Assembly (NCBI GenBank): GCA_937902925.1
Contig: CALFNN010000080.1
Span: 1 to 64,000 of the forward strand
DNA: 64,000 nt
Direction: 5' to 3'
From: an uncultured Opitutaceae bacterium
Lineage (GTDB): Bacteria; Verrucomicrobiota; Verrucomicrobiia; Opitutales; Opitutaceae
The position numbers and the translations under genes were made by a program. The notes beneath the pieces are model-generated. The model saw only the letters and a program-made list of their open reading frames with translations, did no database searches and had not been told where the DNA came from. The number at the start of each line of letters is the position of its first letter. Position 1 is the first letter of the stretch. This document shows, piece after piece, positions 1-48,604 of this stretch.

Positions 1-855
1 TGCTTGATGATGTCCATCGTGCTCATGGCGAGGCCGGCGCCGTTGACGAGGCAGGCGATGTTGCCGTCGAGCGCGATGTAGTTGAGCGCGTGCCTGGAGG
101 CCTCGATTTCCTTCGGGTCCTCCTCGTTCAGGTCGCGGAGGGCGACGATCTCCGGATGGCGGAACAGCGCGTTGTCGTCGAAGGAAACCTTCGCGTCGAG
201 CGCCAGCACCTCGCCCGTCGGTGTGGTGATGAGCGGGTTGACCTCGACCATCGCCGCATCGGTTTCCCAGAAGCAGGTGTAGAGATTGCGGATGAGCTTG
301 CCGGCGTTCTTCGCCTCGGCGCCGGTGAGACCGAGCTTGAAGATCAGCTCGCGCACCTGGTAGTCGGCGAGGCCGTAGGCGGGATCGACGACGACCTTGG
401 TGATCTTCTCGGGCGTCTCGTGCGCGACCTTCTCGATCTCGACGCCGCCCTCGGTCGAGGCAACGATGACGGGCTTCGACGACGCGCGGTCGAGGAGGAT
501 GGCGAGGTAGTATTCCTTCTTGATGTCGCTCGCGACGGTGAAGTAGACGGTCTGGACCTTGCGGCCGGCGGGGCCGGTCTGGAGCGTGACGAGCGTGTTG
601 CCGAGCATCTTGCCGGCGAGTTCCTTGGCGTCGGCCTTGGTCTTGCAGAATTTCACGCCACCCTTGAAGCCGTCGGTGAACGTGCCCTTGCCGCGGCCGC
701 CGGCGTGGATCTGCGACTTCACCATGGTGGGCCCCTCGGGGAGCTGGGAGAGCGCGTTGATGAACTCCTCCGGCGAAGTTGCGGCGGCGCCCTTGGGGAC
801 CGGCACGCCGAATTTTTCAAAGAGGGCCTTGGCTTGATACTCGTGGATGTTCATC
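1..855 (-). CDS. sucC: succinate--CoA ligase (ADP-forming) beta subunit, N-terminal ~285 aa; gene continues beyond window start
   Basis: Reverse-strand translation from the ATG (complement of cat at 853-855) reads MNIHEYQAKALFEKFGVPVPKG...ATP-grasp fold of SucC. Not in the ORF track because it has no stop in the window. Confidence 0.85.
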
Positions 856-968
856 GGAAAGAAGGACGACCAGTCAGCCATAAACCGGCGGGGTAACGCA
901 CGAAAAAACGGCGGCCGGGACGCGGGGTCCCGGCCGGCCGTGGCAATACGAAGGGTCGCTGATGGCGC

Positions 969-1376
969 CTATGCCAGGTGCTTTTGCAGATCGAGCAGCA
1001 GTTCCTGCTCGGCGGCGGACACGTCGCCATCGGCGGCGAAGATTTTCCGGCAGAGCGCCATGGTGCGGGCCTTGGTGGCGGGCGTCGCGAGGCGTTCGGC
1101 GACCACGGCGAGGAAGTCCGCGCGGGAGGCGGGCGATTCCTTCACCGCGCGGGCGTTGGCGATGGAGCGGGCGGTGAACGCGTCGTAGGAGACGCGCGGG
1201 TCCCAGTTGAACTGGTCGACCGTGCGGGCGATGATCTCGTCCTCCTTGGCCGCGATGCTGTTGTCGGCATACATGCAGTAGAAGAGCAGATCGACCATCG
1301 CTTCGCGCTGGACTTGGGTCAGGCCGTCCTCGCCGAGTTTCGAGGAGCTGAACAGTTTCTTGAAGAGGTTTTTCAT
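969..1376 (-). CDS. TerB-like (tellurite-resistance TerB / DjlA-N-like) domain protein
   Basis: 135 aa ORF with a TerB-like helical pattern (DLLFYCMYADNSIAAKEDEII...AEQELLLDL). Lies 13 nt downstream of the flotillin gene. Confidence 0.55.
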   Translation of the reverse strand: MKNLFKKLFSSSKLGEDGLTQVQREAMVDLLFYCMYADNSIAAKEDEIIARTVDQFNWDPRVSYDAFTARSIANARAVKESPASRADFLAVVAERLATPATKARTMALCRKIFAADGDVSAAEQELLLDLQKHLA

Positions 1377-1388
1377 TGGGACGACAGG

Positions 1389-2906
1389 CTACGCGGAAGG
1401 CTTGTCGGGTTTCACGGCGTTTTTCAAGGCCGGCACCTGCTCGAGGAGTTTTTCGAACTTCACGCCGGTGAGCGCCTCGAGCACGGGCGGGAGCTGCGAG
1501 AGGATGGTGGTGACGTCGCCGGTGAGCTTGCTGGCGCCGCCGCCGGGACCGGAGCCGCCGCTGATGATGACCATCTTCTCCGTCTTCGCGAGCGGCGCGG
1601 AGATCTGGCCGGCGATCTCGGGCAGCGCCCGGACGATGAGCTCGATGATGGCGGCCTGGTTGTATTCCTTGAAGGAGTCGGCCTTCTTGCGCATCGCCTC
1701 GGCGGTCGCGAGGCCCTGCGCCTCGATGACGGTCGCCTCGGCGAGACCGCGCGCCTTGTTGGCGTCGGCCTCGGCGGTGCCGGTGGCCTTGACGACATCG
1801 GCCTGGGCGAAGCCGGTGGCCTTGGTGGCGGAGGCGGCGCCCGCGGCCTCGGTTTCAAGTTGGAATTTACGCGCGGTCGCGAGGGTCTCGACCTTGTAGC
1901 GCTCGGCGTCGGCGGGTTTTTGCACGTTGGCCTCGAGTTCGCGCTGCTTGCGGAGGATTTCCTGCTGCTGCAGCTCGATCTGCTTCTGTTTCTCGATGAT
2001 GCTGACCTGGACTTCCTCCGCCTTGACGAGCTGGTTGGTCTTGAACTTCTGGAGATCGTAGGCGAGTTCGGACTGGGCCTTCTTCTGGTTCACGGACGCG
2101 TTGTAGTCCTGGACATTCATCTGGTAGTCGCGCTGCGCCTCGGCGATTTTCGAATCGGCGGCGAACTTGGCCTCCTGGCCGGCTTGGGAGGCCTGCGCGG
2201 TGCGGATGGCGGCGTCGCGGTCGGCCTCGGCCTGGGCGATCTGCGCGTCGCGCTTGACCTGCGCGATGCGCGGCTTGCCGAGGGCGTCGAGGTAACCCTG
2301 CGTATCGCGGATGTCGCGGATGGTGAAGCTGACGATGCTGAGGCCCATGTTGGCCATGTCGCCGGCGGCGACTTCCTGGACCTTCGAGGCGAACGCGTCG
2401 CGGTTCTGGTAGATCTCCTCGACGGTCATCGTGCCGAGGATGGCGCGCAGGTGGCCCTCGAGGGTCTGCATCGCGATGTTCTTGATGTCGTCGACGCCCT
2501 TGCTGAGGAACTGCTCGGCGGCGGTGGCGATGGAGATGTCGTCGCCCTTGACCTTGATCTGCGCGACGCCATCGACCTTCACCGGCACGCCCTTGCTCGT
2601 ATAGACCTCGGGCGTCTGCACGTCGATGGTGAGGAGCTCGAGCGAGAGGATGTCGGCCTTCTCGACAACGGGGATGATAAACGTGCCGCCGCCCTTCACG
2701 ACGCGGAAGCCGCGGATCGAGCCCTTGCCGTCGGCGCCGACGATCCGGTGCTGGCGCCCGGAGACGATCAGCACCTCGTTGGGGCCGACCTTGGTGTAGC
2801 GGCTGGCCCAAACGATGAGCAGGAAGAATACGACAATGACGATGCCGACGACGGCGATGGCGCCGATGCCGAAGCCGCCGAGTTGAGCGAGGAGTGCAGG
2901 GTTCAT
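1389..2906 (-). CDS. flotillin-like SPFH/band-7 protein (YqiK/FloT type)
   Basis: N-terminal TM helix, SPFH domain (GGGTFIIPVVEKADILSLELLTIDVQTPEVYTSKGVPV), long EA-rich coiled-coil flotillin repeats. Start trimmed to the internal Met (MNPALLAQ); the upstream 39 codons of the ORF are Arg/Ser-rich run-on. Confidence 0.85.
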   Translation of the reverse strand: MNPALLAQLGGFGIGAIAVVGIVIVVFFLLIVWASRYTKVGPNEVLIVSGRQHRIVGADGKGSIRGFRVVKGGGTFIIPVVEKADILSLELLTIDVQTPEVYTSKGVPVKVDGVAQIKVKGDDISIATAAEQFLSKGVDDIKNIAMQTLEGHLRAILGTMTVEEIYQNRDAFASKVQEVAAGDMANMGLSIVSFTIRDIRDTQGYLDALGKPRIAQVKRDAQIAQAEADRDAAIRTAQASQAGQEAKFAADSKIAEAQRDYQMNVQDYNASVNQKKAQSELAYDLQKFKTNQLVKAEEVQVSIIEKQKQIELQQQEILRKQRELEANVQKPADAERYKVETLATARKFQLETEAAGAASATKATGFAQADVVKATGTAEADANKARGLAEATVIEAQGLATAEAMRKKADSFKEYNQAAIIELIVRALPEIAGQISAPLAKTEKMVIISGGSGPGGGASKLTGDVTTILSQLPPVLEALTGVKFEKLLEQVPALKNAVKPDKPSA

Positions 2907-2943
2907 GATAGGGTTAAGCTGGAGGGTTGAAAATCGCAGGGCG

Positions 2944-4323
2944 TCAGTCGGCCGTGACGTAGAATTGCGAGCCGACGACGCGCGTGATGCGGACCGCGCC
3001 GCCGTTGGGATGGGCTGCACCATCGTCGGCGCGGGCGGGCGCGGAGTAGCGCGTCCCGGATTGGACGTAGGCGATCTCGCCGACGCCGTCGGCAGCGATG
3101 GGCGTGATGACGGTGGCGTTGCAGCCGATCACATCGGCGATGCGGCCCTCGCTCGACGCCTGGGTGTTCCGGAAGATCGTCCGAAAAAGCCAAAAAACGC
3201 CCGCCGCGACCGCGAAGCCGCTCAGCGCGGCCAGTGGCGCGCTGACCCACGGGCTGCGGGTGGCATCGATCTCCGCGTAGATCATCCCGAAGCCGCCGAA
3301 CGAGGTGATGAACGTCGCGATGGTCGTCGGGCTCAGCGGCGCGAAGCCCGGCATGTCGCTGGCGCCGCCCCCGCCCTCGGCGTGGCCCTGGGCGTGACCA
3401 CCGCCGCCGTGCCCGGTATCAATGCTGTGCGCGATGTCGCCGTGCCCGCCGAGGACGTGGGCGCCGAGCGCGCTGATCAGCGTGAAGAGCAAGCCGACGC
3501 CGAAACACACGGAGTAGACAAGGAACGCCGTGGTCCCGGTCTGGGCGTCGACCTCCGCGGTGGCGAAACCCGCCGCACCGACACCGGCGAGCGAGAAGAC
3601 GCCCGACGGGACCTTGTTCATCGCGAAAAAATTGGAGAACTTCGCGCAGATGCCCGCGCCTCCGCCCATCGTGGCGGAGTGGGCGAGCGCGCCGCCGGCG
3701 AGCGCGGCGGCGAGGCCGGCGGGCGGCGCCGCGACGGCCTGCGTGGAGATCGCGAGGCCCAGGGCGGCGGCGGTGGACGTAACGCCCTTCTGCGCGAGCG
3801 CCTGCCGGAGTTTTTCGAGCGCACGCTCGGCCCGCATGCGCGCGGAGCTCTCGCCGATGCCGAGTTTTTTGCCCATCTCGGCGAAGGGCTGATCCTCGAA
3901 GTAGCGCATCAAGATGGGCGTGCGGTCGTGTTCGGCGAGATTGCAGAGCGCCGAATCCAGCAGCGGCCGGAGTTGTTCCCAGTCGGCCTCGTGGGCGGAG
4001 TCCCGTTCGATTTCTTCCATGGTGTGTGCCTCCTGTTCGCGGGCGGTGCGGCGCCGGCGTTCGCGCAGCGCCTTGAGCGCCGCAAACCGGGTGCTGGTGT
4101 AAAGCCAGCTCGTCAACACCGGCCGGTCGGCCAGCTCGCCCGCCTTGCGGGCGAGGTCGATGAAGACGCCCTGGCTGACATCCTGCGCGAGCAGCATGTC
4201 GCCGCCGACCTGACGCAGGGCGGCGGAATAAACGAGCCCCGCCTTGCGCCGAACGAGTTCGGTGAAGGCCGCTTCCGACCGCTCGCGAGCGTAGCGGCGG
4301 AGGAGTTCGGAGTCGTCGTTCAT
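2944..4323 (-). CDS. ECF sigma-70 factor (regions 2 and 4) fused through multi-TM segments to a C-terminal NfeD-like OB-fold domain
   Basis: Single uninterrupted frame. aa 1-190 carry sigma region 2 (LVYSAALRQVGGDMLLAQDVSQGVFIDL) and region 4 HTH (QPFAEMGKKLGIGESSARMRAERALEKL). Then 3-4 hydrophobic helices and a His/Gly-rich loop, then a YuaF/NfeD-type beta-barrel (GRIADVIGCNATVITPIAADGVGEIAYVQSGTRYSAPARA...VRITRVVGSQFYV). Start placed at MNDDSELLRRY (cat at 4321-4323). Confidence 0.7.
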   Translation of the reverse strand: MNDDSELLRRYARERSEAAFTELVRRKAGLVYSAALRQVGGDMLLAQDVSQGVFIDLARKAGELADRPVLTSWLYTSTRFAALKALRERRRRTAREQEAHTMEEIERDSAHEADWEQLRPLLDSALCNLAEHDRTPILMRYFEDQPFAEMGKKLGIGESSARMRAERALEKLRQALAQKGVTSTAAALGLAISTQAVAAPPAGLAAALAGGALAHSATMGGGAGICAKFSNFFAMNKVPSGVFSLAGVGAAGFATAEVDAQTGTTAFLVYSVCFGVGLLFTLISALGAHVLGGHGDIAHSIDTGHGGGGHAQGHAEGGGGASDMPGFAPLSPTTIATFITSFGGFGMIYAEIDATRSPWVSAPLAALSGFAVAAGVFWLFRTIFRNTQASSEGRIADVIGCNATVITPIAADGVGEIAYVQSGTRYSAPARADDGAAHPNGGAVRITRVVGSQFYVTAD

Positions 4324-4622
4324 CGCAGGGTTACACCCGCCGCGGAGGCAAATGGCACACGAGCCGGGTGATATTCGGAAAACCCCCGGGGCCGGGAGGC
4401 GGTGTCGAACCGGGATGCCGCCAGTCCAAGCCGGGCGGACCGGGGGCGGATCGGACGGGGGAGCGGAGGGTTCATCGGACGCCACGCATGGAAGCAGGTC
4501 CGCCGGATTAAATCACTTATAATGTCGCCGGAAATTCCCAGCGCCGCAGCGATCTTGCAAAAGCCGCGCCGCCACCGCCGCGGCTTGCCAAGCCGTGGGC
4601 GACTCCGCACGCTGCCGCCACC

Positions 4623-5093
4623 ATGGATTCCCACGAGGTGATGAGGGACGTGTTGAAGAAGACCAGCGCGAAGCAAATCGCCGCCGAGATGGGCCTGTCG
4701 CTGTCGTTGATCTACAAATGGGCGGAGCCGCCCGTGGATGAAAGCGGCAGCGGCACCGGCAGTCCGCTCGACCGCGTGGGCCAGCTCATCCGCATTTCCC
4801 GCGATGTGCGCGTGGCGCAGTGGGTGTGCGAGCAGGCCGGCGGATTCTACATCCGGAATCCGAAGAACCTGCCGACGGGCCAGCCGCTGATCCCGATGAC
4901 CAACGACATCGTGCACGAGTTCGCCGACATGCTGGCGACCATCGCCACGTCCTCGGCGGACAACGTGATCACGCAGGAGGAGGCGGAAAAAATCCGCGCG
5001 CGCTGGGAGGAATTGAAGAGCGTGACGGAAGGATTCGTCACCGCGGCGGAGAGCGGAAATTTCGGGGCGACGAAGGAGCTGGAGAAAAAATAG
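4623..5093 (+). CDS. hypothetical HTH domain protein, divergently transcribed from the sigma-NfeD gene
   Basis: 156 aa with an HTH-like segment KQIAAEMGLSLSLIYKWAE. No confident family assignment. Confidence 0.5.
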   Translation: MDSHEVMRDVLKKTSAKQIAAEMGLSLSLIYKWAEPPVDESGSGTGSPLDRVGQLIRISRDVRVAQWVCEQAGGFYIRNPKNLPTGQPLIPMTNDIVHEFADMLATIATSSADNVITQEEAEKIRARWEELKSVTEGFVTAAESGNFGATKELEKK

Positions 5094-5160
5094 GCCCGAC
5101 GGCGCCGGCCGGCCGGCGCCGGAACGTTGCGGCCATGCGGACCGCGGTCGCCTCCCTCTC

Positions 5161-5790
5161 ATGAATCCATCGTTTGACGCCGCGTTTTGGAACGACCGCT
5201 ACGGCGGCGACGGTTATGTCTACGGCACATCGCCCAACGAATTTCTCGCGTCGGTCGCGGCGGATGTTCCCGCCGGTCCCGTGCTCTGCCTCGCCGAGGG
5301 CGAGGGGCGTAACGCGACTTTTCTCGCCGGACGCGGTCATGCGGTGACCGCCGTCGACCAGTCGTCGGCCGGCCTCGCGAAGGCCGGCGCGCTCGCGCGG
5401 GGGCGCGGCGTGCCGCTCGCGACCGTCGTGGCCGACCTCGCGGATTTTGCGATCGCGCCGCAGGCGTGGTCGGGCGTCGTGGCGATCTTCATGCACCTGC
5501 CGCCGGCACTGCGTCGGGCCGTGCTCGCGCGCGCGGCGGCCGGGCTCCGGCCGGGCGGCGTGTTCGTGATGGAGGCCTATACGCCCGCGCAACCCGCCTA
5601 CGGCACTGGCGGCCCGCGCGACGTCACCCTTTTACCGACACTGGCGGAGCTCCAGGCGGAACTCGGCGACTTGGAGTGGCTGGTCGCCCGCGAACTCGTG
5701 CGTGACGTGCGGGAAGGCGGCGGTCACACCGGCAACTCCGCCGTCGTGCAGGTGCTCGCCCGTCGGCCGACGAGCGTCGACCGGCGCTAA
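5161..5790 (+). CDS. class I SAM-dependent methyltransferase (TehB/TPMT-like)
   Basis: Motif I VLCLAEGEGRNATFLAGRGHAVTAVDQS and post-I acidic residue; typical ~200 aa small-molecule methyltransferase. Confidence 0.8.
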   Translation: MNPSFDAAFWNDRYGGDGYVYGTSPNEFLASVAADVPAGPVLCLAEGEGRNATFLAGRGHAVTAVDQSSAGLAKAGALARGRGVPLATVVADLADFAIAPQAWSGVVAIFMHLPPALRRAVLARAAAGLRPGGVFVMEAYTPAQPAYGTGGPRDVTLLPTLAELQAELGDLEWLVARELVRDVREGGGHTGNSAVVQVLARRPTSVDRR

Positions 5791-17618: not shown

Positions 17619-19652
17619 TTAGCCCATCCAAACGGCGATTTGTTCGATGACCTTTTCCTTCGTCGGCCGGAAGGCGCCCTCGAGCTCGGGGGCGAAGGGC
17701 ACCGGGAGGTCGAGAGCGGCGATCCGGAGCGGGGCGGCTTTCAGCGTGGCAAAATGTTTCTCGGTCAGCCGCGCGACAAGCTCGGCGCCGAAGCCGTGGG
17801 TGCGGCGGCCCTCGTGCAATACGATCAGCCGACCGGTGCGCGCGAGCGAAGTCTCGATCGAGTCGAGTCGCAGCGGCGAGAGTGCGCGCAGGTCGAAGAG
17901 GTCGAACGTTTTTTCGTATTCGGCGGCGAAGTAATCGCAGGCCTCTCCGGCGAGGAGGGTCATTTCGCCATAGGTCACCATCGTCGCGTGGTTGCCGGAG
18001 CGGAGTTGCTTCGGCTGCCAGATCTCGCGGTAGTTCGGGTCCCACCCGACGGGCGCACGACCGCGGCGATAGAGGGCCTTGTGCTCGAAGAGGAGGACGG
18101 GGTTGTTGTCCTCGTAAGCGGCGAGGAGGGCGTTGAAGGCGTCCTGCGGCGTGCTGGGGTAGAGCGCCTTGAAGCCGGGCATCGAAAGGAACGTGGACTC
18201 GAGCTCCTGCGAATGAAACGAGCCGAACGTCAGCCCGCCGCCGCACGGCAGCCGGAGCACGAGCGGGCAGGTGGCGCCGGAGCGGAAGTGCATCGTGGCG
18301 GCGTTGAGCGTGAGCTGGGTGAACGCCTCCGTCGAAAAATCGGCGAACTGGAATTCCTCGATGGGCCGGTGGCCGTTGAGCGCCAGGCCGATCGCGTAGC
18401 CGGTGCAGGCGCTTTCGGCGAGCGGGGTGTTGAAGACGCGCGGGCGGCCGAAGTCGGCGAGGAGGCCCTCGGTGACCTTGAACGCGCCGCCGTAGGTCGC
18501 GATGTCCTGACCGAGCACGAGCGACTCGGGGCGCTCGGCAAGGATTTTGCGCAGGCCGTGGTTGAGCGCCTGCGCGAGCGTGAGCGATTCGGGCGTGGCG
18601 GGTTCGGGTTTCCACGGGAGCGGTGGCGAGGGCGGGGCGAAGAGACCGGCCTCCATGCCGGCGGGATTGGGGCGCGGCGTGGGGAGGGAAACGTTGACGC
18701 AGGCTTCGAGAAAAGCGTCCAGCTCGGCGTCGAGCGCGTCGAGACGGGCGACGCCGAGCGAAGCGGCGAGGGTGGCGCGGAATTTCGGCAGCGGATCGCG
18801 GGCGAAAAATCCCTCGCTCTCGCCGGGCTTCAGATAATCGCAGGTATCGTAGGCGGCGTGGCCGCGCAGCCGCAGCGTCCGCGCCTCGACGAGGACGGGA
18901 CGAGAAGTCGCGCGGACCTTCGCGATGGCGGCGGCGAGCGTGTGCGCCGTGCCGACGATGTCGGTGGCGTCGACGGCGAAGCCCTCCATCTGGTAGCCGG
19001 CGGCGCGGCGCCAGAGCTCCGTGCCGGCGGCGAACTGTTCGCTGACGGGCGTCGAGTAGGCGTAGGCGTTGTTCTCGATCACGAAGATGACGGGCAGCGA
19101 GAGCAGCGAGGCGAGGTTGAGCGACTCGTGCGTGTCGCCGGTGCTCGAGGCGCCATCGCCGAAAAACGTGAAGCCGACCGCGGGGCGGCCGAGGCGGCGC
19201 TGGGAATCGGTCGCGCCGGCGACGTTGGAGAGCATCGTGCCGAGATGGCTGATCATCGGCAGCGACCGGTGCGAGGGATCGCCGTGGTGGATGTTGCCCT
19301 CTCGGGCGTGGGTCGGGCTGCCGGCGTTGGCGAAATACTGGTTGAGGTGGTCGCAGAGGTGACCGCTCCAGATGAGGTGGCCGCCGAGGCCGCGGTGCGT
19401 GAACGAGACGACGTCGGTCGCCTTGTCGGCGAGGAGCGCGAGCGGGATGACGAGGCCCTCGTTGCCCTGGCCGCCGGTGACGGTGCCGCGAATGAGGCCC
19501 TGGCGAAACAGGTCGAGGATGCGGTTGTCCGCGGTGCGGGCGAGGTGCATCCACGCGTAGAGGCGCAGGAGGGCGGCGGGGGAATTGTTCTCGAGTTCCG
19601 CGGGGCGCAGGTCGCGCTCCGCCAGGACGGCGGGAGGAGTCGGAAAGGCCAT
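17619..19652 (-). CDS. fused 2-oxoacid dehydrogenase E1 component alpha/beta (TPP-dependent)
   Basis: N-terminal half has the E1-alpha TPP motif (GDGASSTGDTHESLNLASLLSLPVIFVIENN); C-terminal half is a transketolase-like E1-beta (VLGQDIATYGGAFKVTEGLLADFG...). Confidence 0.85.
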   Translation of the reverse strand: MAFPTPPAVLAERDLRPAELENNSPAALLRLYAWMHLARTADNRILDLFRQGLIRGTVTGGQGNEGLVIPLALLADKATDVVSFTHRGLGGHLIWSGHLCDHLNQYFANAGSPTHAREGNIHHGDPSHRSLPMISHLGTMLSNVAGATDSQRRLGRPAVGFTFFGDGASSTGDTHESLNLASLLSLPVIFVIENNAYAYSTPVSEQFAAGTELWRRAAGYQMEGFAVDATDIVGTAHTLAAAIAKVRATSRPVLVEARTLRLRGHAAYDTCDYLKPGESEGFFARDPLPKFRATLAASLGVARLDALDAELDAFLEACVNVSLPTPRPNPAGMEAGLFAPPSPPLPWKPEPATPESLTLAQALNHGLRKILAERPESLVLGQDIATYGGAFKVTEGLLADFGRPRVFNTPLAESACTGYAIGLALNGHRPIEEFQFADFSTEAFTQLTLNAATMHFRSGATCPLVLRLPCGGGLTFGSFHSQELESTFLSMPGFKALYPSTPQDAFNALLAAYEDNNPVLLFEHKALYRRGRAPVGWDPNYREIWQPKQLRSGNHATMVTYGEMTLLAGEACDYFAAEYEKTFDLFDLRALSPLRLDSIETSLARTGRLIVLHEGRRTHGFGAELVARLTEKHFATLKAAPLRIAALDLPVPFAPELEGAFRPTKEKVIEQIAVWMG

Positions 19653-19783
19653 GAACTTTGGCGCCGACGGTGAAGGGGCGGTGCGGCGCGGGCAAGCGAG
19701 AGATTTTTCGGCGAGCGGACGCGAGTCACGGGATACCCCGCAAACCGCCCCCGCCCCCGCTCATCGCCGGCCTCCGCTCGGAC

Positions 19784-19810
19784 AGTTTGTCAACTAATAG
19801 TTGACAAACT
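19784..19810. promoter_or_regulatory. palindromic box TTGTCAAC-TAATA-GTTGACAA, copy 1, in the divergent E1 / ABC-exporter intergenic region
   Basis: 11-bp perfect inverted arms with 5-bp AT spacer; the same 21-mer recurs at 46526-46546. Confidence 0.5.
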
Positions 19811-20044
19811 ATTTGGGGCGGATCGGGAAAAAGATGATGCGGACCGGCGTGCTGGCGGGCCAACGAGCCGGCGGGGCGGAGGAAAGTGGGAGCGGAGGGG
19901 CGACGCACCGGCAGGCGGCGGTGGGCGGCGGTGGGCGGCGGGTGGGGCGAAGGGTGGCAGGGTGGCGGGGCGCGGGGAAATGGCCGGGGGGCGGGGAAGC
20001 GGGCGACTTGACGACCGGGGGGCGCGCCCGGAACGTGGCGGCGC

Positions 20045-22013: not shown

Positions 22014-22901
22014 TTATCCGCGCGGGGTCGTTGCCAGTTCCCTGGCGATTTGTGCGACCGCGTCGGGCGGCACCACGAGTTGCCAATTTGGTCCGTCCCG
22101 GTGAAGGGACAGATAGGTCACACTCGTCCGTTGATCATCAGGTGCGCGCGGCGGCTGGCGCTCGGGATGGGCGGCGCGGTCTGCCTTCTGTTGCAAGGCC
22201 AGGCGCGCTGTTTCTTCCCGACCCAGTGGCAGCGGCGTTTCAGGTTGCGGCACGTCGGGCGCGGCGGCTTCTCCTGGCATTGGCGGACGCTGGAGGAACA
22301 ATCCGACGGTCGCGTCGTTTTCGCCGCGTTGATTGAACCACACGAGCTGAGCCTCACCGAGAGGGATGTTCTTAATCGTGAATGCGGAGATCAGGTCCTC
22401 CGGCGTCGGATAAAGGGCGCGCGTCTCCGCCGGCAATTTCGCCAATAGCGAATCGGCGGCCTGGCGGGTGTCGTCGCCGACCGATAGAAGCCGCCTCAAG
22501 GTGAAGACGTCGCCGCCCGCGGCTGCCCAGAGCGCAGTCTCGACCGCGGCGTGCGGCGTGGCCTGGCCGCGATTCTTCCATTCGCGAGCGGGAGTCCACT
22601 GGCCGATCGGAAGCGCCGCCGGGGGCGTTGACGGCGTCGCGGGCGGCACGTCGATTTCATTTTGCAGTCGGGCGGATTCGGCGGTGGCGCGGCGCTGGGA
22701 CTCGAGTTCGCCGGCGGCCGGTTGCAGTGCGCGCAGCCGGTCCCGCTCGCGTTGCAGGTCGAGCAATTCCCGCTGTTGGCCGCGCTGTGCGTCGATCGCA
22801 GCAGTTAGTTGGCTGGTCGAGAATCGCTCGATGACCCAGGTCGCGGCGAGCGCGACCGACACCGCGAGAAGCAGGATGGTTTTCATCGGCTGCCAAACCA
22901 A
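22014..22901 (-). CDS. hypothetical membrane-anchored protein
   Basis: N-terminal TM helix, coiled-coil segment; downstream partner of the sigma-fusion gene at 22883-24100 and overlaps it slightly. Confidence 0.5.
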   Translation of the reverse strand: MVWQPMKTILLLAVSVALAATWVIERFSTSQLTAAIDAQRGQQRELLDLQRERDRLRALQPAAGELESQRRATAESARLQNEIDVPPATPSTPPAALPIGQWTPAREWKNRGQATPHAAVETALWAAAGGDVFTLRRLLSVGDDTRQAADSLLAKLPAETRALYPTPEDLISAFTIKNIPLGEAQLVWFNQRGENDATVGLFLQRPPMPGEAAAPDVPQPETPLPLGREETARLALQQKADRAAHPERQPPRAPDDQRTSVTYLSLHRDGPNWQLVVPPDAVAQIARELATTPRG

Positions 22902-24100
22902 GAGAAGCCCATCTTCGGATCCGGCGTGGCATCGCTTTCGACGACCACGTGGCTGATCCGGTTCCGACGCGCCTGGTCGATCGCGTAGGCGAGTTGGGAG
23001 AATTCCGAAAGTCCATTGATCCCGAGCGAAGCCCCGCCATCCGGCGCGGTCTGCTGCAGCGCCTTTAAGCGCGCAAGGAACTGCTGCAGATTCACCGGTT
23101 CGGAGCCCCAGCGGAGAGTGCCATTGGCCTGCACCGTGACGGTCGCCTGCGCGGGTGGGTTTAGGGCGGACGCCGTGGCCGTGGGTGCGACCTTGACGGA
23201 CGCGGCCGGGCGCTCCGCGGCGAGGCGGCGCAGATCGTCGGCTTCGGCGACGCGCCGGGCGAGCTCATGGTTTTCCGCCTGCAAGGCTGCGCCCGTGCGT
23301 TGCCCGGATTGGAGCTGGGCGAGTTCGGTTTCGAGTTGGCGGTTGACGCGGTGTTGGTGGGTCACGGCAAACGTGCCGAGGAGCAGCGCCGCGCCGACGG
23401 CGAGACCCGGGCCGAGCAGCGCGGCGAAACCCGAGCCCGCGCCGGCGGCCGCTCCCTGGGCCAGCGCGTGACCGGCGATCCGGGTCGCAAGGCCGGCGGG
23501 CGTGATGCCGGGCGCGAGTTCAACCAGCGCCAGCGTCAGCATCGCGGTCGTGGACGTGACGCCGCGGCGGGCGAGTCCGACGCGCAATTTTTCGAGTGCG
23601 CGGTCGACACGTTTGCGTGCGGCCTCTTCGCTCAGCCGCAAGGCGGCGCCCACTTCGGCGAAACTCCGTTGCTCGAAAAAGCGCAGCGCAATCGCCTCGC
23701 GATCCTCGTCGCGCAGGGTGACGATGGCTTCATCCAGCTCCGGACGCAGGTGGTTCCATTCGGGCGGCGGCGTCGAATCGTCGAGGAGCGTTTGCATGGT
23801 GTGGGCGGCGGCTTCGCGCGCCTTGCGGCGGCGTTCGGTGCGCACGACCTCCGCCGTGGCGACGTGCGTGCTGACGTAGAGCCAGCCGGAGAGACTCGCG
23901 CGGCCGGAGAGGGATGCGGCCTTGCGCGCCAGATCGGCGAAGACTTTTTGGGTGACGTCCTCGGCGAGGTGCGTGTCACCACCGACGCGGCGCAGCGAAG
24001 CGGAATAAACAAGGCCGACATGGCGGTGGACCAATTCGGCGAAAGCGGCCTCCGAGCGATCCTCGGCATAGCGGCGGAGCAGTTCGGCGTCGTGGGTCAT
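22883..24100 (-). CDS. ECF sigma-70 factor fused to TM helix, coiled coil and ExbD/TolR-like C-terminal domain
   Basis: MTHDAELLRRYAEDRSEAAFAELVHRHVGLVYSASLRRVGG (region 2), LRFFEQRSFAEVGAALRLSEEAARKRVDRALEKL (region 4), TM segment, coiled coil, then VTVQANGTLRWGSEPVNLQQFLARLKALQQ...ISHVVVESD resembling ExbD/TolR periplasmic domain. First 150 codons of the track ORF are Arg/Pro run-on; start at cat 24098-24100. Confidence 0.65.
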   Translation of the reverse strand: MTHDAELLRRYAEDRSEAAFAELVHRHVGLVYSASLRRVGGDTHLAEDVTQKVFADLARKAASLSGRASLSGWLYVSTHVATAEVVRTERRRKAREAAAHTMQTLLDDSTPPPEWNHLRPELDEAIVTLRDEDREAIALRFFEQRSFAEVGAALRLSEEAARKRVDRALEKLRVGLARRGVTSTTAMLTLALVELAPGITPAGLATRIAGHALAQGAAAGAGSGFAALLGPGLAVGAALLLGTFAVTHQHRVNRQLETELAQLQSGQRTGAALQAENHELARRVAEADDLRRLAAERPAASVKVAPTATASALNPPAQATVTVQANGTLRWGSEPVNLQQFLARLKALQQTAPDGGASLGINGLSEFSQLAYAIDQARRNRISHVVVESDATPDPKMGFSWFGSR

Positions 24101-24156
24101 GATGGATTGCCCAATGGCTGCCGCCGGGATGAAAACCGGACAAAAAAATCGCGAAA

Positions 24157-24840
24157 TCAGATTTCGATCGTCTCGCCGGCGCCCAGGACGCGGACGGTGT
24201 GGCCCGCAGCGAGGGCGGACTTCGCGAAGGCGTGCGGGTCCTGGCGGATTTTGTCCGTGGTGTCGTAGTGCATCGGCACGGCGAGTTTCGGACGGAGGAG
24301 ATTCAGCGCCTCGACGGCGTCGGCGGGGCCCATCGTGTAACGGTCGCCGATGGGCACGAGCGCCGCGTCGAGGCCGTGGCGGCCGATGAGCCGCATGTCG
24401 CCGAAGAGCGCGGTGTCGCCGGCGTGATAAAGCGATTTGCTGCCGGCGCGGATGAGATAGCCGCCGGGGACGCCCATGGGTTTGTTTTCGCCGCCGGGAA
24501 GCTCGAGCGCCGAGCTGTGGACCGCGGGCGTCATCGTGAGGCGGCCCCACGACAGGTCGATACCGCCGCCGGGCATGAGGTCGAGCGCGGTGGCACCCTG
24601 CGCCGCGAAATGCTCCGCGAGTTCGTAGGGGGCGACGATGGTCGCGCCATGCAGCCGGGCGAGAGCAAGGGCGTCGCAGATGTGATCTTCATGCGCGTGG
24701 GTGCAGAGAATGAAGTCGCACGGCACGCGGTCGAGCGGGACGCGACCGTGGGGGTTGTCGGTCAGATACGGATCGAGGACGAGCCGCGCGCCGGGAACCT
24801 CGACGAGGAAGCAGGAGTGGCCGAAGTAGGTGAGCTTCAT
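24157..24840 (-). CDS. metal-dependent hydrolase, MBL fold (UPF0173 family)
   Basis: MKLTYFGHSCFLVE...DPYL...CTHAHEDH motif typical of the UPF0173 beta-lactamase-fold family. Confidence 0.85.
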   Translation of the reverse strand: MKLTYFGHSCFLVEVPGARLVLDPYLTDNPHGRVPLDRVPCDFILCTHAHEDHICDALALARLHGATIVAPYELAEHFAAQGATALDLMPGGGIDLSWGRLTMTPAVHSSALELPGGENKPMGVPGGYLIRAGSKSLYHAGDTALFGDMRLIGRHGLDAALVPIGDRYTMGPADAVEALNLLRPKLAVPMHYDTTDKIRQDPHAFAKSALAAGHTVRVLGAGETIEI

Positions 24841-44748: not shown

Positions 44749-45015
44749 TTGCTCCCGACGATCATGGAAACCCAGATAAAAGCGTCCCTTAACTCGCTCC
44801 TTGCGGCCATCAAAGCGGCTGATGGCCAGACGATTGCCGACGAAATGGCGAAATTGGATGGCATGTTGGAGCACGGGCGGGCGGGGCTGCATCCGCAACT
44901 GGCTCATTTTCTGGAGAACCGGAGCTACGCGAAGGCGCTGATGTTTTTGGGCGGCGAGAGCGACATTCCGGTCGGAGTGTGCGGCGGGCGGGCAGGGAAA
45001 ACGGGAGGAGCCTGA
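44749..45015 (+). CDS. small hypothetical protein, translationally coupled to yciH
   Basis: 88-aa ORF ending TGA 3 nt before the yciH ATG. No family recognised, coding status uncertain. Confidence 0.35.
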   Translation: MLPTIMETQIKASLNSLLAAIKAADGQTIADEMAKLDGMLEHGRAGLHPQLAHFLENRSYAKALMFLGGESDIPVGVCGGRAGKTGGA

Positions 45016-45017
45016 AT

Positions 45018-45443
45018 ATGGCCGGCGGCGGAAAGATTCCGACGGATGGCGGCGGCGGCCTTGGGCAGAATCCGTTTGGCGCGCTGAGCGCCGCGGGGTT
45101 GCCGGTCGCTCCGAAGGTGGTTTTGGAGCAGGCGGCGGCGAAGCTGGCCGGGAACCCGGGGCGGCCGGGGACAGTCGCGACCGCCGCTCAGACGAAGAAT
45201 CGTGGACGCGTGGATATCCGGCGCGAGACGGGAAACCGCGGCGGAAAGACGGTCACGGTCGTCGACGGATTCGTGGGGATCGGGCTGCCGGAAAAGGAGC
45301 AGCTCGCGAAGAAAATGCGCGCGGCGTGCGGCTGTGGCGGAACGGTGAAGGACGGCGCGATCGAGATCCAAGGCGACCAGCGGGAAAAAATCGCGGCGAT
45401 TTTGAGCGCGGCGGGATTCCGGCCGGTATTCGCGGGCGGATGA
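45018..45443 (+). CDS. yciH: translation initiation factor SUI1-family protein (YciH-like)
   Basis: RRETGNRGGKTVTVVDGF...CGCGGTVKDGAIEIQGDQREKIAAIL matches SUI1/YciH. GGGAGGAG SD-like sequence 7 nt upstream. Confidence 0.8.
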   Translation: MAGGGKIPTDGGGGLGQNPFGALSAAGLPVAPKVVLEQAAAKLAGNPGRPGTVATAAQTKNRGRVDIRRETGNRGGKTVTVVDGFVGIGLPEKEQLAKKMRAACGCGGTVKDGAIEIQGDQREKIAAILSAAGFRPVFAGG

Positions 45444-45542: not shown

Positions 45543-46421
45543 TCAGGCGGCCAGGCCGGCCGTGAGGGCGAGGGCGCCTTTGGCCCGGTTGAGAATGTAG
45601 AGGTGGTAACCGGGCGCGCCGTTGGCGAGCAGGCCGCGAATCTGGTTGAGCGCCCAGTCGACGCCGACGATCTCGACGACCTCGGGGCTCTCGGCGGCGA
45701 CCTCGAGGCGGGTGGTGAGCGGCGCGGGGAGCGTCGTGCCGCAGATCGAGGTGAACCGGCGGATCTGTTTCAACGACAGCACGGGCATGATGCCGGGGAC
45801 GATCGGCACGGTGATGCCGGCCGCGCGGCATTTTTCGACGAAGCGGTAATAGACGGCGTTGTCGAAGAAGAGCTGCGTCGTGATGAAATCGGCGCCGGCG
45901 TCGACCTTGCGCTTGAGATGGGTGAGGTCGGCGTCGAGCGACGGTGCCTCGGGGTGTTTCTCCGGATAGCCGCCAACCCCGAGGCAGAAATCGGCGTGGC
46001 GCGACTTGAGCAGGGCGACGAGGTCGCTCGCGTAACGAAGACCGTCCAGATAGGGCGTGAACGTGGTCTCACCCTTCGGCGGATCGCCGCGCAGCGTCAT
46101 GATGTTCCGGAAACCGCTCGCGTGAATCCGGTCGGCGACCTCGGCGAGCTCGGCGCGCGAATGGCCGACACAGGTGAGGTGGGGCATGACCGTGAAGTTG
46201 AACTCCGACTTGAGCAGCGCGCTGACCTGCGCGGTGCGTTCGCGGGTCGAGCCGCCGGCGCCGTAGGTGACGGACACGAAATCGGGATTCATGCGCCGGA
46301 GCGCGGCCGCGGTGGCGCGGAGGGCCTCGACGCCGGCATCGTCCTTGGGCGGAAAAAACTCCAGCGAGCGCAGCGGGCGGCGTTGCGCGAAGAGTTCGGA
46401 GATGGGCCGGTCGGGCGTCAT
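45543..46421 (-). CDS. metF: 5,10-methylenetetrahydrofolate reductase
   Basis: SLEFFPPK...FVSVTYGAGGSTRERT...LTCVG...IMTLRGDPP...GVGGYPEKHPEA are MetF hallmarks. Start 46421 preferred over 46499. Confidence 0.85.
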   Translation of the reverse strand: MTPDRPISELFAQRRPLRSLEFFPPKDDAGVEALRATAAALRRMNPDFVSVTYGAGGSTRERTAQVSALLKSEFNFTVMPHLTCVGHSRAELAEVADRIHASGFRNIMTLRGDPPKGETTFTPYLDGLRYASDLVALLKSRHADFCLGVGGYPEKHPEAPSLDADLTHLKRKVDAGADFITTQLFFDNAVYYRFVEKCRAAGITVPIVPGIMPVLSLKQIRRFTSICGTTLPAPLTTRLEVAAESPEVVEIVGVDWALNQIRGLLANGAPGYHLYILNRAKGALALTAGLAA

Positions 46422-46522
46422 GCGTGGCGGCGACGGAAAGCGAAAGGCGGCCGGTCGTAAAGCGGCGAGTGCGGCATGCGTGGCGGACGGCGCGGGCACG
46501 CTGGGGTCCGGGGGGCCGGAGA

Positions 46523-46549
46523 GGTTGTCAACTAATAGTTGACAACCGG
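46523..46549. promoter_or_regulatory. palindromic box TTGTCAAC-TAATA-GTTGACAA, copy 2, upstream of metF
   Basis: Identical 21-nt core to 19787-19807, ~100 bp upstream of the metF ATG. Confidence 0.5.
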
Positions 46550-46677
46550 CGCTTTGCCCGGCGGAGCGGGGACCGTCGACGGGCGATTCCGGTCGCCGAG
46601 ACGGGAGCGTCGACGGGCGGTTCCGATCTACGAGGTAGGCCCGTCGACAAGGTGGGGCCGTTGACGGGGCGGGGCGA

Positions 46678-48477
46678 TTAGACGGAGCGGGCGAGGTAGG
46701 CGCGCCAGCCGCCGAAACGCGTGATGTCCTCGGCGCCGGCGAGGGCGGCGGGTTCGCAGAGGAAACCTTTCACGGATTCGCCCGTGGCGAGGACCACGGT
46801 GCCGATGCAGAGCGGCGATGGCACGGCGGCAACAAAACTGCCGAAAGCGGCAACGGGGAGTTCCCACACTTCCACGGCGATGGATGCACCGCCGTCGGCG
46901 ACACGGACGAGGCCGGGTTTCGGCGGGGTTGAGTTGGGCAGGGCGTGGAGACGGTAGACCGGCGCGGTGTTGCCCGACCAGACGAGGCGAGCGCCACGGT
47001 CGGTGAGTTGATGATTGAGGGGCAGACCGGAGAGATGGGCGCCGACGACGGCGAGCTGGATGGTCGTTGGTGCGGCCGTAGTGGCGGTGGGCGGCGATGA
47101 CGGCGCGGGCGGGAGCGGATGCGAGGTGGCGCCGAGTTTGCCGCCGATGGCGGCGTGCCAACGGGCGGCAAGGGCGAGGAGAGTGGGCTCGCTCCACGCG
47201 GGTGCGATGAACGTGACGCCCCACGGGGCGCCGTCGCGGCGGATGCCGGCGGGCACGGCGAGGGCGGCGAGGTCGAGGAGGTTAACGAAGTTGGTGTAGG
47301 TGCCGAGGCGGGTGTTGAGGAGCAACGGCTCGGCGGCGACCTCGGCGACGGTGTAGGGGCGCGGCGCAGTGGGGACGAGGAGCACATCCATTTTCTCCCA
47401 CTCGGCGGCGGCGCGGCGGGCGAGGGCGGCGAGGCGATAAAAGCCTTCGAACGTGTCGGCGGCGCTGAGATTCGCGGCGCCCTCGACGATCTTGCGCGTG
47501 ACGGGGAAAAACGCGTCCGCGTTTTTCTGGTGAAATGCGCGGAGCGCGGCCCAGCGCTCAGCGACCCACGGACCCTGGTAGAGCAAGGCGGCGGCTTCGC
47601 GGAAAGGGGAAAAGTCGATCTCGACGAGCTGGGCGCCGAGGGCGGTAATGCGGGAGAGATTTTCGCGGAAGAGGCGTTCGGCTTCGGCGTCACCGAAGAA
47701 CTCGAGCGCGGTGGGTTCGGGAACGCCGACGCGAAGCGACGCGGGAGCGGAGGTGGTGGTTGCGCGCGAGCGGGAAAACGAATCCTCGGGATCGAAGGCC
47801 TCGGCGACGCGGGCGACATCGGCGGCGTCGCCGCAGGTGAGCGCGAAGATCGAAACGCAGTCGAGCGAGCGGCAGGCGGGGACGACGCCGCGGGTGCTGA
47901 GGGCGCCCTTGGTGAGCTTGAAGCCGACGAGGTTGTTCAGGCCGGCGGGGATGCGGCCGGAGCCGGCGGTGTCGGTGCCGAGGGAAAACGAGGCGAGGCC
48001 GGCGGCGACGGCGACGGCGGAGCCGCTGCTGGAGCCGCCGGGGATCAGGTCGGCGCGAAACGGATTGCGCGGGACGCCATAGGGCGAGCGGACGCCAACG
48101 AGGCCGGTGGCGAACTGGTCGAGGTTGGTCTTGCCCACGGGAATCGCGCCGGCGTCGAGGAGACGCTGGACGACGGGCGCGGAGTCGGCGGGCGTGTAGG
48201 CGAACTCCGGGCAGCCGGCGGTGGTGGGGACGCCGGTGAGGTCGATGTTGTCCTTGATCGCGAAGGGAACGCCGTAGAGCGGCAACGTGGAGCGGTCGAG
48301 CGATTCGAGACGGCGGGCGTGGACGAGGAGTTCGTCGCGCGAGAGGAGACGAATCCAGACGGCGGGATCGGCGTGCGTGGCGATGCGACGGAGAAGTTCG
48401 TCGACGAGAGCGGTCGGCGTGAGGGAGCCGTCGGCGTAGGCGGCACGGAGGGCGGCGAGGTCGAGGGAGAAAGGCAT
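46678..48477 (-). CDS. atzF: allophanate hydrolase
   Basis: Amidase-signature domain (GGSSSGSAVAVAAGLASFSLGTDTAGSGRIPA) and the AtzF C-terminal domain. Start at cat 48475-48477. Confidence 0.85.
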   Translation of the reverse strand: MPFSLDLAALRAAYADGSLTPTALVDELLRRIATHADPAVWIRLLSRDELLVHARRLESLDRSTLPLYGVPFAIKDNIDLTGVPTTAGCPEFAYTPADSAPVVQRLLDAGAIPVGKTNLDQFATGLVGVRSPYGVPRNPFRADLIPGGSSSGSAVAVAAGLASFSLGTDTAGSGRIPAGLNNLVGFKLTKGALSTRGVVPACRSLDCVSIFALTCGDAADVARVAEAFDPEDSFSRSRATTTSAPASLRVGVPEPTALEFFGDAEAERLFRENLSRITALGAQLVEIDFSPFREAAALLYQGPWVAERWAALRAFHQKNADAFFPVTRKIVEGAANLSAADTFEGFYRLAALARRAAAEWEKMDVLLVPTAPRPYTVAEVAAEPLLLNTRLGTYTNFVNLLDLAALAVPAGIRRDGAPWGVTFIAPAWSEPTLLALAARWHAAIGGKLGATSHPLPPAPSSPPTATTAAPTTIQLAVVGAHLSGLPLNHQLTDRGARLVWSGNTAPVYRLHALPNSTPPKPGLVRVADGGASIAVEVWELPVAAFGSFVAAVPSPLCIGTVVLATGESVKGFLCEPAALAGAEDITRFGGWRAYLARSV

Positions 48478-48486
48478 TTCGGAAGA

Positions 48487-48590
48487 GTGTCTCGCGAAGG
48501 ATTGGAAGGGAGCGAAGGATAAAACCAAAGGAAGGAAAAGGTTGGAGCTGGGATGGATTGGGCCTTCGCTTCCTTCGAATCCTTCGCGGG
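48487..48590. repeat. CGAAGG-unit imperfect hairpin element between uca stop and atzF start
   Basis: Arms cgcgaaggattggaagggagcgaagg and ccttcgcttccttcgaatccttcgcg, ~26 bp, separated by a ~30-nt loop. Confidence 0.65.
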
Positions 48591-48604
48591 AAATTTGGAT
48601 TGGA

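Follow-up and report, generated by a model that had tools for sequence, protein, structure and literature searches.

The closest described counterparts of the element studied here are the repetitive extragenic palindromes (REPs) and their REP-associated tyrosine transposases (RAYTs). These are short, dispersed extragenic palindromes with a bias toward 3' ends and convergent genes, sometimes clustered, and they are accompanied by a dedicated gene that is flanked by copies; the sequence variant of the palindrome follows the variant of the protein. In E. coli, REPs are reported to function as Rho-dependent attenuators and mRNA stabilizers without T-tracts (bioRxiv 10.64898/2026.03.23.713779). Another kind of protein-palindrome pair is formed by the Cro/CI/XRE repressors and their operators (restriction-modification C proteins and C-boxes, Aca, DdrO/RDRM), in which a small protein of the lambda-repressor fold has a palindrome over its own promoter or start, several operators lie round the gene and the self-sites are slightly imperfect. 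XRE-type domains that bind very many chromosomal sites are also known, in Streptomyces BldD (box TNAC-N5-GTNA) and Mycobacterium EspR. Finally, the chromosome-organizing systems matS/MatP, NBS/Noc and SBS/SlmA use palindromic sites that are strong, number in the tens per chromosome and bear no relation to what the neighboring genes do. Here we describe a perfect palindrome that occurs twice in a 64,000-nucleotide stretch of DNA (contig CALFNN010000080.1, assembly GCA_937902925.1; the whole stretch is called the window below) from an uncultured Opitutaceae bacterium. The two copies are members of a dispersed extragenic palindrome family found across the Opitutaceae (Verrucomicrobiota), and the palindrome is very probably a protein-binding site of the operator type.

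The 21-mer TTGTCAACTAATAGTTGACAA is present exactly at positions 19787-19807 and 46525-46545. A window search that allowed up to three mismatches returned no third match, and none was found in 100 dinucleotide-preserving shuffles, in line with the claim of an earlier sequence-only reading that the identity is far beyond chance. That reading placed the first site correctly and the second one base too high. It described arms of 8 bp and a 5-bp spacer, whereas both sites are perfect palindromes with 10-nt arms around a single central A. The additional flanking palindromy that it noticed is real, and extends the perfect palindrome to 27 nt at the first site and 25 nt at the second. Both can fold into stable hairpins, of -25 to -29 kcal/mol at copy 1 (z about -7) and -25.6 to -28.5 kcal/mol at copy 2. 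Copy 1 lies 134 nt upstream of the ATG of a gene for a fused E1 2-oxoacid dehydrogenase, in the region that separates it from a divergent ABC exporter gene. Copy 2 is placed between two genes, 132 nt past the stop codon of allophanate hydrolase and 103 nt ahead of the ATG of metF. Domain searches support the assignment of E1, exporter and metF that had been made from the sequence. The shared orientation of the two copies, to which the sequence-only reading drew attention, carries no information, as the center is A or T within the family and unbiased relative to the flanking genes (20 A, 21 T).

The range of the family was determined by an exact-match scan with TGTCAACTANTAGTTGACA (18 specified bases) of one genome per species, 596 billion bases in all, and the copy counts given below are among the matches listed. 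The 19-nt core TGTCAACTAWTAGTTGACA is exact in more than 111 stretches. About 100 of the listed stretches belong to some 24 assemblies of Opitutaceae, Opitutia or Lacunisphaera, with counts per assembly that range from several to at least 17, and the family core consensus is TGTCAAC-TAWTA-GTTGACA. These related genomes are all metagenome-assembled and fragmented; in one of them, the fragmented assembly JBEKWG, copies occur on at least 10 contigs. In 836 kb of high-G+C loci, additional copies that carry one mismatch are roughly as frequent as additional exact ones, all of them intergenic, and the palindromes are often clustered, with two to four in one intergenic region. The sequence-only reading had proposed a genome-wide search for the 21-mer as a means to define a regulon. 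Run on the 19-nt core, the search gave many copies per genome but did not define a regulon of E1 and metF. The same reading held that many copies throughout coding regions would indicate a repeat element; the copies are indeed many, as befits a repeat family, but almost all are intergenic.

Nine listed matches fall outside the Opitutaceae group, seven of them in low-G+C genomes (archaea, Veillonella, cyanobacteria, Melainabacteria), one in Pyrinomonadaceae and one in Microthrixaceae. By our estimate, 18 specified bases should match roughly 17 times by chance in 596 billion bases; chance, or unrelated operators, can therefore account for these nine. The identical 19-mer was also seen singly in low-G+C phage contigs, Veillonella and archaea (L207-L213, L032, L110, L021, L055), often just upstream of genes, and such singletons are probably unrelated operators of other Cro/XRE-type repressors with the same half-site. 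A phage origin of the family was considered and rejected, as the seven viral contigs with the exact 19-mer have 23-40% G+C and are unrelated.

The family avoids promoter-only regions. Almost all copies (107 of 114) are intergenic, in DNA that is 82% coding, with genes called by a home-made codon-usage caller trained on the window. For 92 copies the flanking genes are convergent in 44 cases, tandem in 42 and divergent in only 6, as compared with 90 convergent, 311 tandem and 101 divergent among all intergenic regions of at least 25 nt at the same loci (convergent versus divergent: Fisher odds ratio 15, p = 5e-12). Copy 1, with its divergent neighbors, is thus a rare exception. At the median, a copy is 77 nt away from the closest stop codon and 120 nt away from the closest start. 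Typical convergent regions measure only 120-170 nt, which leaves no room for a missed gene, and convergent regions with a copy have a median length of 168 nt versus 102 nt for those without, i.e. they are about 66 nt longer. On either strand, two of the three reading frames of the core contain stop codons, as read from its sequence, and the core is for this reason excluded from most coding DNA. No functional theme was apparent among the genes whose 5' ends face a copy (61 Pfam families among 43 genes, MTHFR, TrpA, PurA, Ffh and LplA included) or among those whose 3' ends do (139 families among 100 genes).

A family of small proteins is encoded beside copies of the palindrome in related genomes. 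Its members have about 118-124 amino acids, with an N-terminal helix, an Arg-rich linker and a C-terminal lambda-repressor-like (XRE/Cro) helix-turn-helix domain. The first member, encoded by a gene of about 118 codons at locus L062, has the variant palindrome TGTCATCTATTARATGACA 30 nt upstream. A homologue at L112 has a palindrome 6 nt before its ATG and another 19 nt after its stop codon, and in eight of nine further homologues a palindrome lies 0-15 nt before the ATG or overlaps it, the ninth (L123) having it 97 nt upstream. In total, 10 of the 11 distinct homologues have the palindrome over their ATG or no more than 30 nt before it, and most of these genes have one or two extra copies just downstream of the stop codon or further upstream. 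The self-sites usually carry one or two mismatches (TGTCAGC, CGTCAAC, a CAATA center), whereas the dispersed copies are perfect. The recognition helix has an invariant R-Q, and the residue that follows tracks the half-site. All four proteins with RQR (P0107, P0116, P0118 and that of L062) have TGTCAC[CT] or TGTCATC beside the gene, and all seven others, with RQ[T/A/Q], have TGTCAAC. For one homologue, L204, the half-site was predicted from the helix ahead of reading the DNA, and the prediction held. In the CAZKDK and JAQUYL assemblies the gene with a canonical self-site occurs together with dispersed canonical copies. The adjacency and the matched variation strongly suggest that the XRE-like protein binds the palindrome and, through weaker self-sites that overlap the start, regulates its own gene.

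The protein family has 393 members in the protein collection searched, all annotated as 'hypothetical', and those with a named source are without exception from Opitutaceae or Verrucomicrobiota. Pfam gave sub-threshold matches only, with no domain assigned to any member, and a search of solved structures by sequence gave nothing significant. Matches to PHROGs were limited to weak ones of the repressor type, and PADLOC gave no match. A literature search found no description of this motif or protein.

Arrays of TGTCATCTATTARATGACA within repeated modules of about 110 nt were observed at two loci (L062, positions 1-3000, and L043, positions 1340-2200). Next to them are a tRNA-Met gene, a gene for a divergent protein of the helix-turn-helix family and an insertion-sequence-like integrase gene with inverted repeats. 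The arrangement looks like an integrated element with a protein-palindrome pair of its own.

The core is unusually constant relative to its surroundings. Orthologous sites keep exact copies although their flanks, which are mostly coding, are 71-94% identical (median 82%), and one locus retains an exact copy in four genomes at 73-75% identity. In one assembly, 10 of 17 copies have an orthologous exact copy in another genome, among the matches listed. The probability of 19 matches in 19 positions at 75% per-site identity is about 0.004, and exact copies at sites so diverged indicate that the core is kept by purifying selection or by homogenization. The immediate flanks at orthologous sites differ, each matching the consensus of its own genome, and these lineage-specific consensuses are themselves symmetric (GCTGA...TCAGC in one assembly, AACA...TGTT or GCAA...TTGC in others). 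Self-complementarity at positions +1 to +5 of the flanks is found in 85, 71, 71, 54 and 49% of cases, far above the expected 61, 32, 29, 28 and 34%. At least 10 further perfect pairs occur in 11 of 110 copies, where 0.1 is expected, and some stems reach at least 20 bp. We rejected the pooled 'covariation' of the flanks as proof of a hairpin, as most of it reflects the lineage-specific symmetric consensus; a smaller excess is left within genomes (239 pairs versus 194.6 +/- 10.1, and no more than 226 in any of 2000 permutations). In tandem intergenic regions, the hairpins of the sense and antisense strands did not differ in energy (8 versus 13, p = 0.36) and the central base has no strand bias, so the data are evidence for intrastrand pairing or copy-paste spread and not for RNA-specific selection. 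The copies have probably spread by a REP-like copying process and were later fixed, since point mutation would hardly produce a perfect 19-21-mer tens of times, the copy-bearing regions are about 66 nt longer and the arms show excess symmetry.

We think it likely, if by no means certain, that the dispersed palindromes are high-affinity sites of a dedicated protein of about 120 amino acids, in a layout like that of REP/RAYT systems. Under this hypothesis the cognate protein would be encoded elsewhere in the genome, outside the window. A dimer would read the two TGTCAAC half-sites by its recognition helix, with the invariant R-Q followed by the specificity residue. At its own gene, the site that overlaps the start codon or promoter region could mediate autorepression. 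The dispersed occupied sites would not switch particular promoters, and would most likely act instead on what passes gene boundaries, as a roadblock or insulator and/or as a hairpin in the 3' untranslated region (UTR); copy 2, for example, would separate the urea carboxylase/allophanate hydrolase unit from metF. Such a boundary effect on passing transcription is the function that we prefer for the dispersed sites.

Overall, the system looks like a combination of known kinds, a REP/RAYT layout joined to a Cro/CI/C-protein-like pair with sites at gene ends. It shares with REP/RAYT systems all of the features of layout named above, yet the palindrome has no GTAG or CGTC tag, its core is rich in A+T against a genome of 67% G+C, the copies number tens and not hundreds, the core is identical family-wide and at orthologous sites, and the flanked gene encodes an XRE-like helix-turn-helix protein without an HUH/Y1 catalytic domain. 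The pair of protein and self-site resembles the Cro/CI/XRE systems in fold, in the position over the start, in the multiple sites round the gene and in their slight imperfection. Those repressors control one operon or a coherent regulon from promoter-proximal positions, whereas the palindromes are mostly at 3' ends and in convergent regions, beside unrelated housekeeping genes. The AC-N5-GT geometry of the BldD box resembles the CAAC-N5-GTTG of the palindrome; the sites of BldD and EspR are degenerate and largely promoter-associated, unlike the dispersed palindromes. No sequence relationship of the protein to BldD or EspR was detectable, its Pfam matches being sub-threshold. The MatP, Noc and SlmA systems resemble the palindrome family in the number and strength of their sites, but their proteins belong to different families with no sequence resemblance.

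If this reading is correct, a whole bacterial family carries an undescribed two-part system, composed of an orphan XRE-like protein and tens of perfectly conserved gene-end palindromes, in which a REP/RAYT genomic layout is combined with a repressor-type binder in place of a transposase. It would offer a tractable case for the purpose of dispersed extragenic palindromes, for the fixation of repeats as a host function and for transcription boundaries set by proteins in bacteria. A bolder version, which we consider unlikely, is that Opitutaceae mark gene boundaries, and especially convergent ends, by a sequence-specific protein on a perfect palindrome. The complex would be a protein-dependent terminator or insulator, a counterpart of the mTERF/Reb1-type roadblock, which spread in a REP-like manner and then came under selection, with the weaker self-sites setting the level of the protein.

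Several observations weigh against the protein-site interpretation and the boundary role. The protein gene is absent from the window; a profile search of six-frame translations of 1.6 Mb of loci recovered the family only at its known loci. The link between protein and site consists of adjacency and co-variation across 11 homologues, uncorrected for kinship, and the number of copies per genome is a rough estimate, drawn from the matches listed. The gene caller missed two small genes in the window. The convergent regions that bear a copy still hold other hairpins of equal strength. Lastly, the self-complementarity of the flanks continues past the likely footprint of the protein. A dimeric binder of double-stranded DNA does not require symmetry this extended, which speaks for the biology of hairpins or cruciforms or for copy-paste spread.

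The E1 and metF loci of related genomes bear on whether the palindrome belongs to these genes. At E1, it was found in only 2 of 69 metagenomic orthologue loci with enough upstream DNA (73-84% identity), at -123 and -115, and in both cases the upstream gene is a tandem hydrolase and not a divergent ABC exporter. The 503 kb of E1-orthologue loci contain three palindromes in total, which suggests that many of these lineages may lack the system altogether. For metF, neither of two distinct orthologue contexts (88% identity) has the palindrome, and the upstream genes differ. Other sequences nearer to the starts are conserved. A box upstream of E1, ATCTCTCGCTTGCCCGCG (window positions 19687-19704, minus strand, about 35-50 nt before the ATG), is probably the real promoter or regulatory element of E1. 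Five upstream regions of E1 orthologues were read, and four of them (L125, L127, L129 and L197, not L143; 75-84% protein identity) share the box with small variations. The palindrome lies a variable 45-80 nt beyond the box, about 80 nt at copy 1. Between metF and copy 2 there is a leader of about 60 nt (about 46422-46480, minus strand; ...GCCGCAYTCGCCGCTTTACG...TTCCGTCG...) that is conserved in the 88%-identical orthologues (L214-L216) without the palindrome. The leader may be a conserved promoter or an element of the 5' UTR, and Rfam returned nothing for it at the gathering threshold. At both loci the palindrome is just outside the conserved promoter-proximal sequence, at a break in synteny.

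The window palindromes are neither a -35 element nor a pathway-specific operator, given the convergent and tandem bias of the family, the absence of a gene theme, the absence of a -10 hexamer and the orthologues that mostly have no palindrome. A classical operator, or a -35 module in both directions, that co-regulates E1 with the ABC exporter and metF as one regulon was the proposal of the sequence-only reading. In its favor, both window copies are upstream of genes, each arm contains TTGACA, a helix-turn-helix protein probably binds the palindrome and two of the three palindromes in the E1-orthologue loci are similarly placed; we nevertheless regard it as quite improbable. A sigma-70-like promoter scan had no match at either window site, and no -10 hexamer lies 16-18 nt outward of TTGACA there or family-wide. 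The -10 zone in 220 outward half-flanks is in fact G+C-rich (63-84% at +18 to +22 and 58% at +23), and the promoter-module version is largely refuted. The co-regulation version meets the difficulty that nearly half of the copies are between convergent genes, where there is no promoter, and so few are between divergent ones. In addition, the many copies per genome face genes without a shared theme, the palindrome is missing from 67 of 69 E1 loci and from both metF contexts, where conservation had been anticipated, and its spacing to the E1 box varies while E1 and metF have conserved sequences of their own nearer the start. The part of the proposal that stands is a site for a DNA-binding regulator, which the XRE/Cro-like protein with the palindrome at its start makes very probable; the regulon is unsupported. 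An exact palindrome common to two upstream regions need not mean co-regulation. A comparison with LexA, also proposed, was negative. The LexA box of Verrucomicrobia is TGTTC-N4-GAACA, and the LexA regulon in Opitutaceae comprises at most two operons, with boxes upstream of SOS genes (PMC4951493). It is likewise a palindromic operator in the same phylum, but we rejected it as the identity of the palindrome because sequence, spacing and targets all differ.

The remaining alternatives concern the hairpin and the chromosome. That the copies are canonical intrinsic (Rho-independent) terminators which share a conserved apex by accident is in our view highly improbable. They are central in short convergent regions, soon after stop codons, and the family hairpins are stable (median about -20 kcal/mol), yet no terminator-like match was found at either window site and T-tracts are at background level, with a mean of 1.5 T in the 10 nt past the stem and five or more in only 3 of 130. 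With the core and 12 nt on each side masked, the other hairpins of convergent regions have -25.5 kcal/mol in regions with a copy versus -23.5 kcal/mol in those without (p = 0.59). We therefore rejected the palindrome as the terminator of its intergenic region, to which it is an addition, and copies also occur directly on the start of the helix-turn-helix gene. A more serious competitor, though still an unlikely one, is a REP-like hairpin element, mobile now or once, which acts as a hairpin of single-stranded DNA or RNA (a 3'-UTR stabilizer or partial terminator), the helix-turn-helix gene being only REP-associated or having borrowed a copy as its operator. Such an element accounts for the extragenic, 3'-end and convergent positions and the clusters, for flank self-complementarity past the core, also within single genomes, with some very long stems, and for the greater length of copy-bearing convergent regions, as inserted DNA predicts. 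The recurrence of a perfect 19-21-mer would also call for copying, and the REPs of E. coli are reported to act without T-tracts. Against it, there is no GTAG or CGTC tag in the core or in the flank consensus, the 25 families matched most often in each of the two censuses of flanking genes (143 genes together) include no Y1 transposase, and the comparison of sense and antisense hairpin energies gave no G-U sign of RNA-level selection. Typical REPs are species-specific and decay, whereas this core is exact in about 24 species-level assemblies and at orthologous positions, and the half-site variants track the recognition helix of the protein. The GTAG/CGTC REP families cataloged in a survey of Opitutus terrae were also excluded as its source. 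The core is absent from the supplementary files of that survey, and those REPs are partly intragenic and apparently G+C-rich, as the listed intragenic ones encode Gly/Ala/Pro-rich peptides. Finally, the same protein-palindrome pair could serve chromosome organization in the manner of MatP/matS, Noc/NBS or SlmA/SBS, by marking a domain or guiding segregation or division, with the sites confined to 3' intergenic DNA only because elsewhere they would interfere with genes. Tens of near-perfect, conserved sites per genome without a link to gene function are what it predicts, the stop codons in the core would exclude it from most coding DNA, and promoter avoidance would follow from interference. We consider it very improbable, as the protein is unrelated to MatP, ParB/Noc or TetR/SlmA, no regional restriction is visible (at least 10 contigs in one fragmented assembly), and the sites gather round the gene of the protein and form local arrays, a pattern that fits repressor-operator systems better.

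The two copies and their neighbors are listed in Table 1. The window has a G+C content of about 67%, and the MTHFR encoded in it shares 83-91% identity with proteins that carry the names Opitutaceae, Opitutia or Verrucomicrobia. An Rfam scan at the gathering threshold gave no family match anywhere in the window.

Table 1. Palindrome copies and adjacent genes, in window coordinates
Feature	Position	Strand	Description
Palindrome copy 1	19784..19810		27-nt perfect palindrome AGTTTGTCAACTA-A-TAGTTGACAAACT; shared 21-nt core 19787-19807; divergent E1/ABC-exporter intergenic region
Palindrome copy 2	46523..46547		25-nt perfect palindrome GGTTGTCAACTA-A-TAGTTGACAACC; core 46525-46545; tandem intergenic region, allophanate hydrolase 3' end / metF 5' end
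Fused E1 alpha/beta 2-oxoacid dehydrogenase	17619..19652	-	E1_dh, Transket_pyr, Transketolase_C; neighbor, outside element
ABC exporter, fused membrane + ATPase domains, 625 aa	20045..21922	+	Neighbor, divergent from E1; same gene call in ENA contig L001
metF (MTHFR)	45543..46421	-	MTHFR, E = 4e-91; neighbor
Allophanate hydrolase	46678..48528	-	Amidase, AH_C; neighbor, 3' end toward copy 2

Some further observations concern the surroundings of copy 2. At L116 and L121 (genes at 2829-5357), from two Opitutaceae genomes, the helix-turn-helix gene and its palindrome are found just downstream of urea carboxylase and allophanate hydrolase. Copy 2 has the same urea carboxylase/allophanate hydrolase neighbors (window positions 46525-52222), with no helix-turn-helix gene; the shared neighborhood could be a remnant or a coincidence. 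In a close relative (contigs of P0123), the neighbor of metF is a gene of 180 codons with a weak Y1_Tnp (IS200/RAYT-like) match, which has no counterpart in the window and was set aside. Local direct repeats of CGTCGACGGGCG(A/G)TTCCG, together with a GTAGGCCCGTCGAC motif, occupy positions 46566-46660 between the allophanate hydrolase stop codon and copy 2. Their 13-mer does not recur elsewhere in the window beyond chance, and they may be related to the GTAG-type REPs reported for Opitutus terrae. On the other side of metF, two small genes convergent with it were seen at 44764-45430 (plus strand), one of them SUI1/YciH-like from its translation read by eye; these are the two that the gene caller missed.

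Near copy 1, the E1/ABC intergenic region also contains a G-rich tandem repeat, GGCGGCGGTGGGC, of about three units at 19900-19960, downstream of the palindrome. Beyond the exporter gene, a single open reading frame at 22883-24550 (minus strand) matches sigma-70 regions 2 and 4 as well as ExbD/TolR, and the gene caller places its end at 24100. Either a fusion or the merging of two genes in the list of open reading frames could explain this. The GC skew is strongly positive throughout the window (0.07-0.27) though nearly all genes are on the minus strand, and the coding strands are therefore C-rich.

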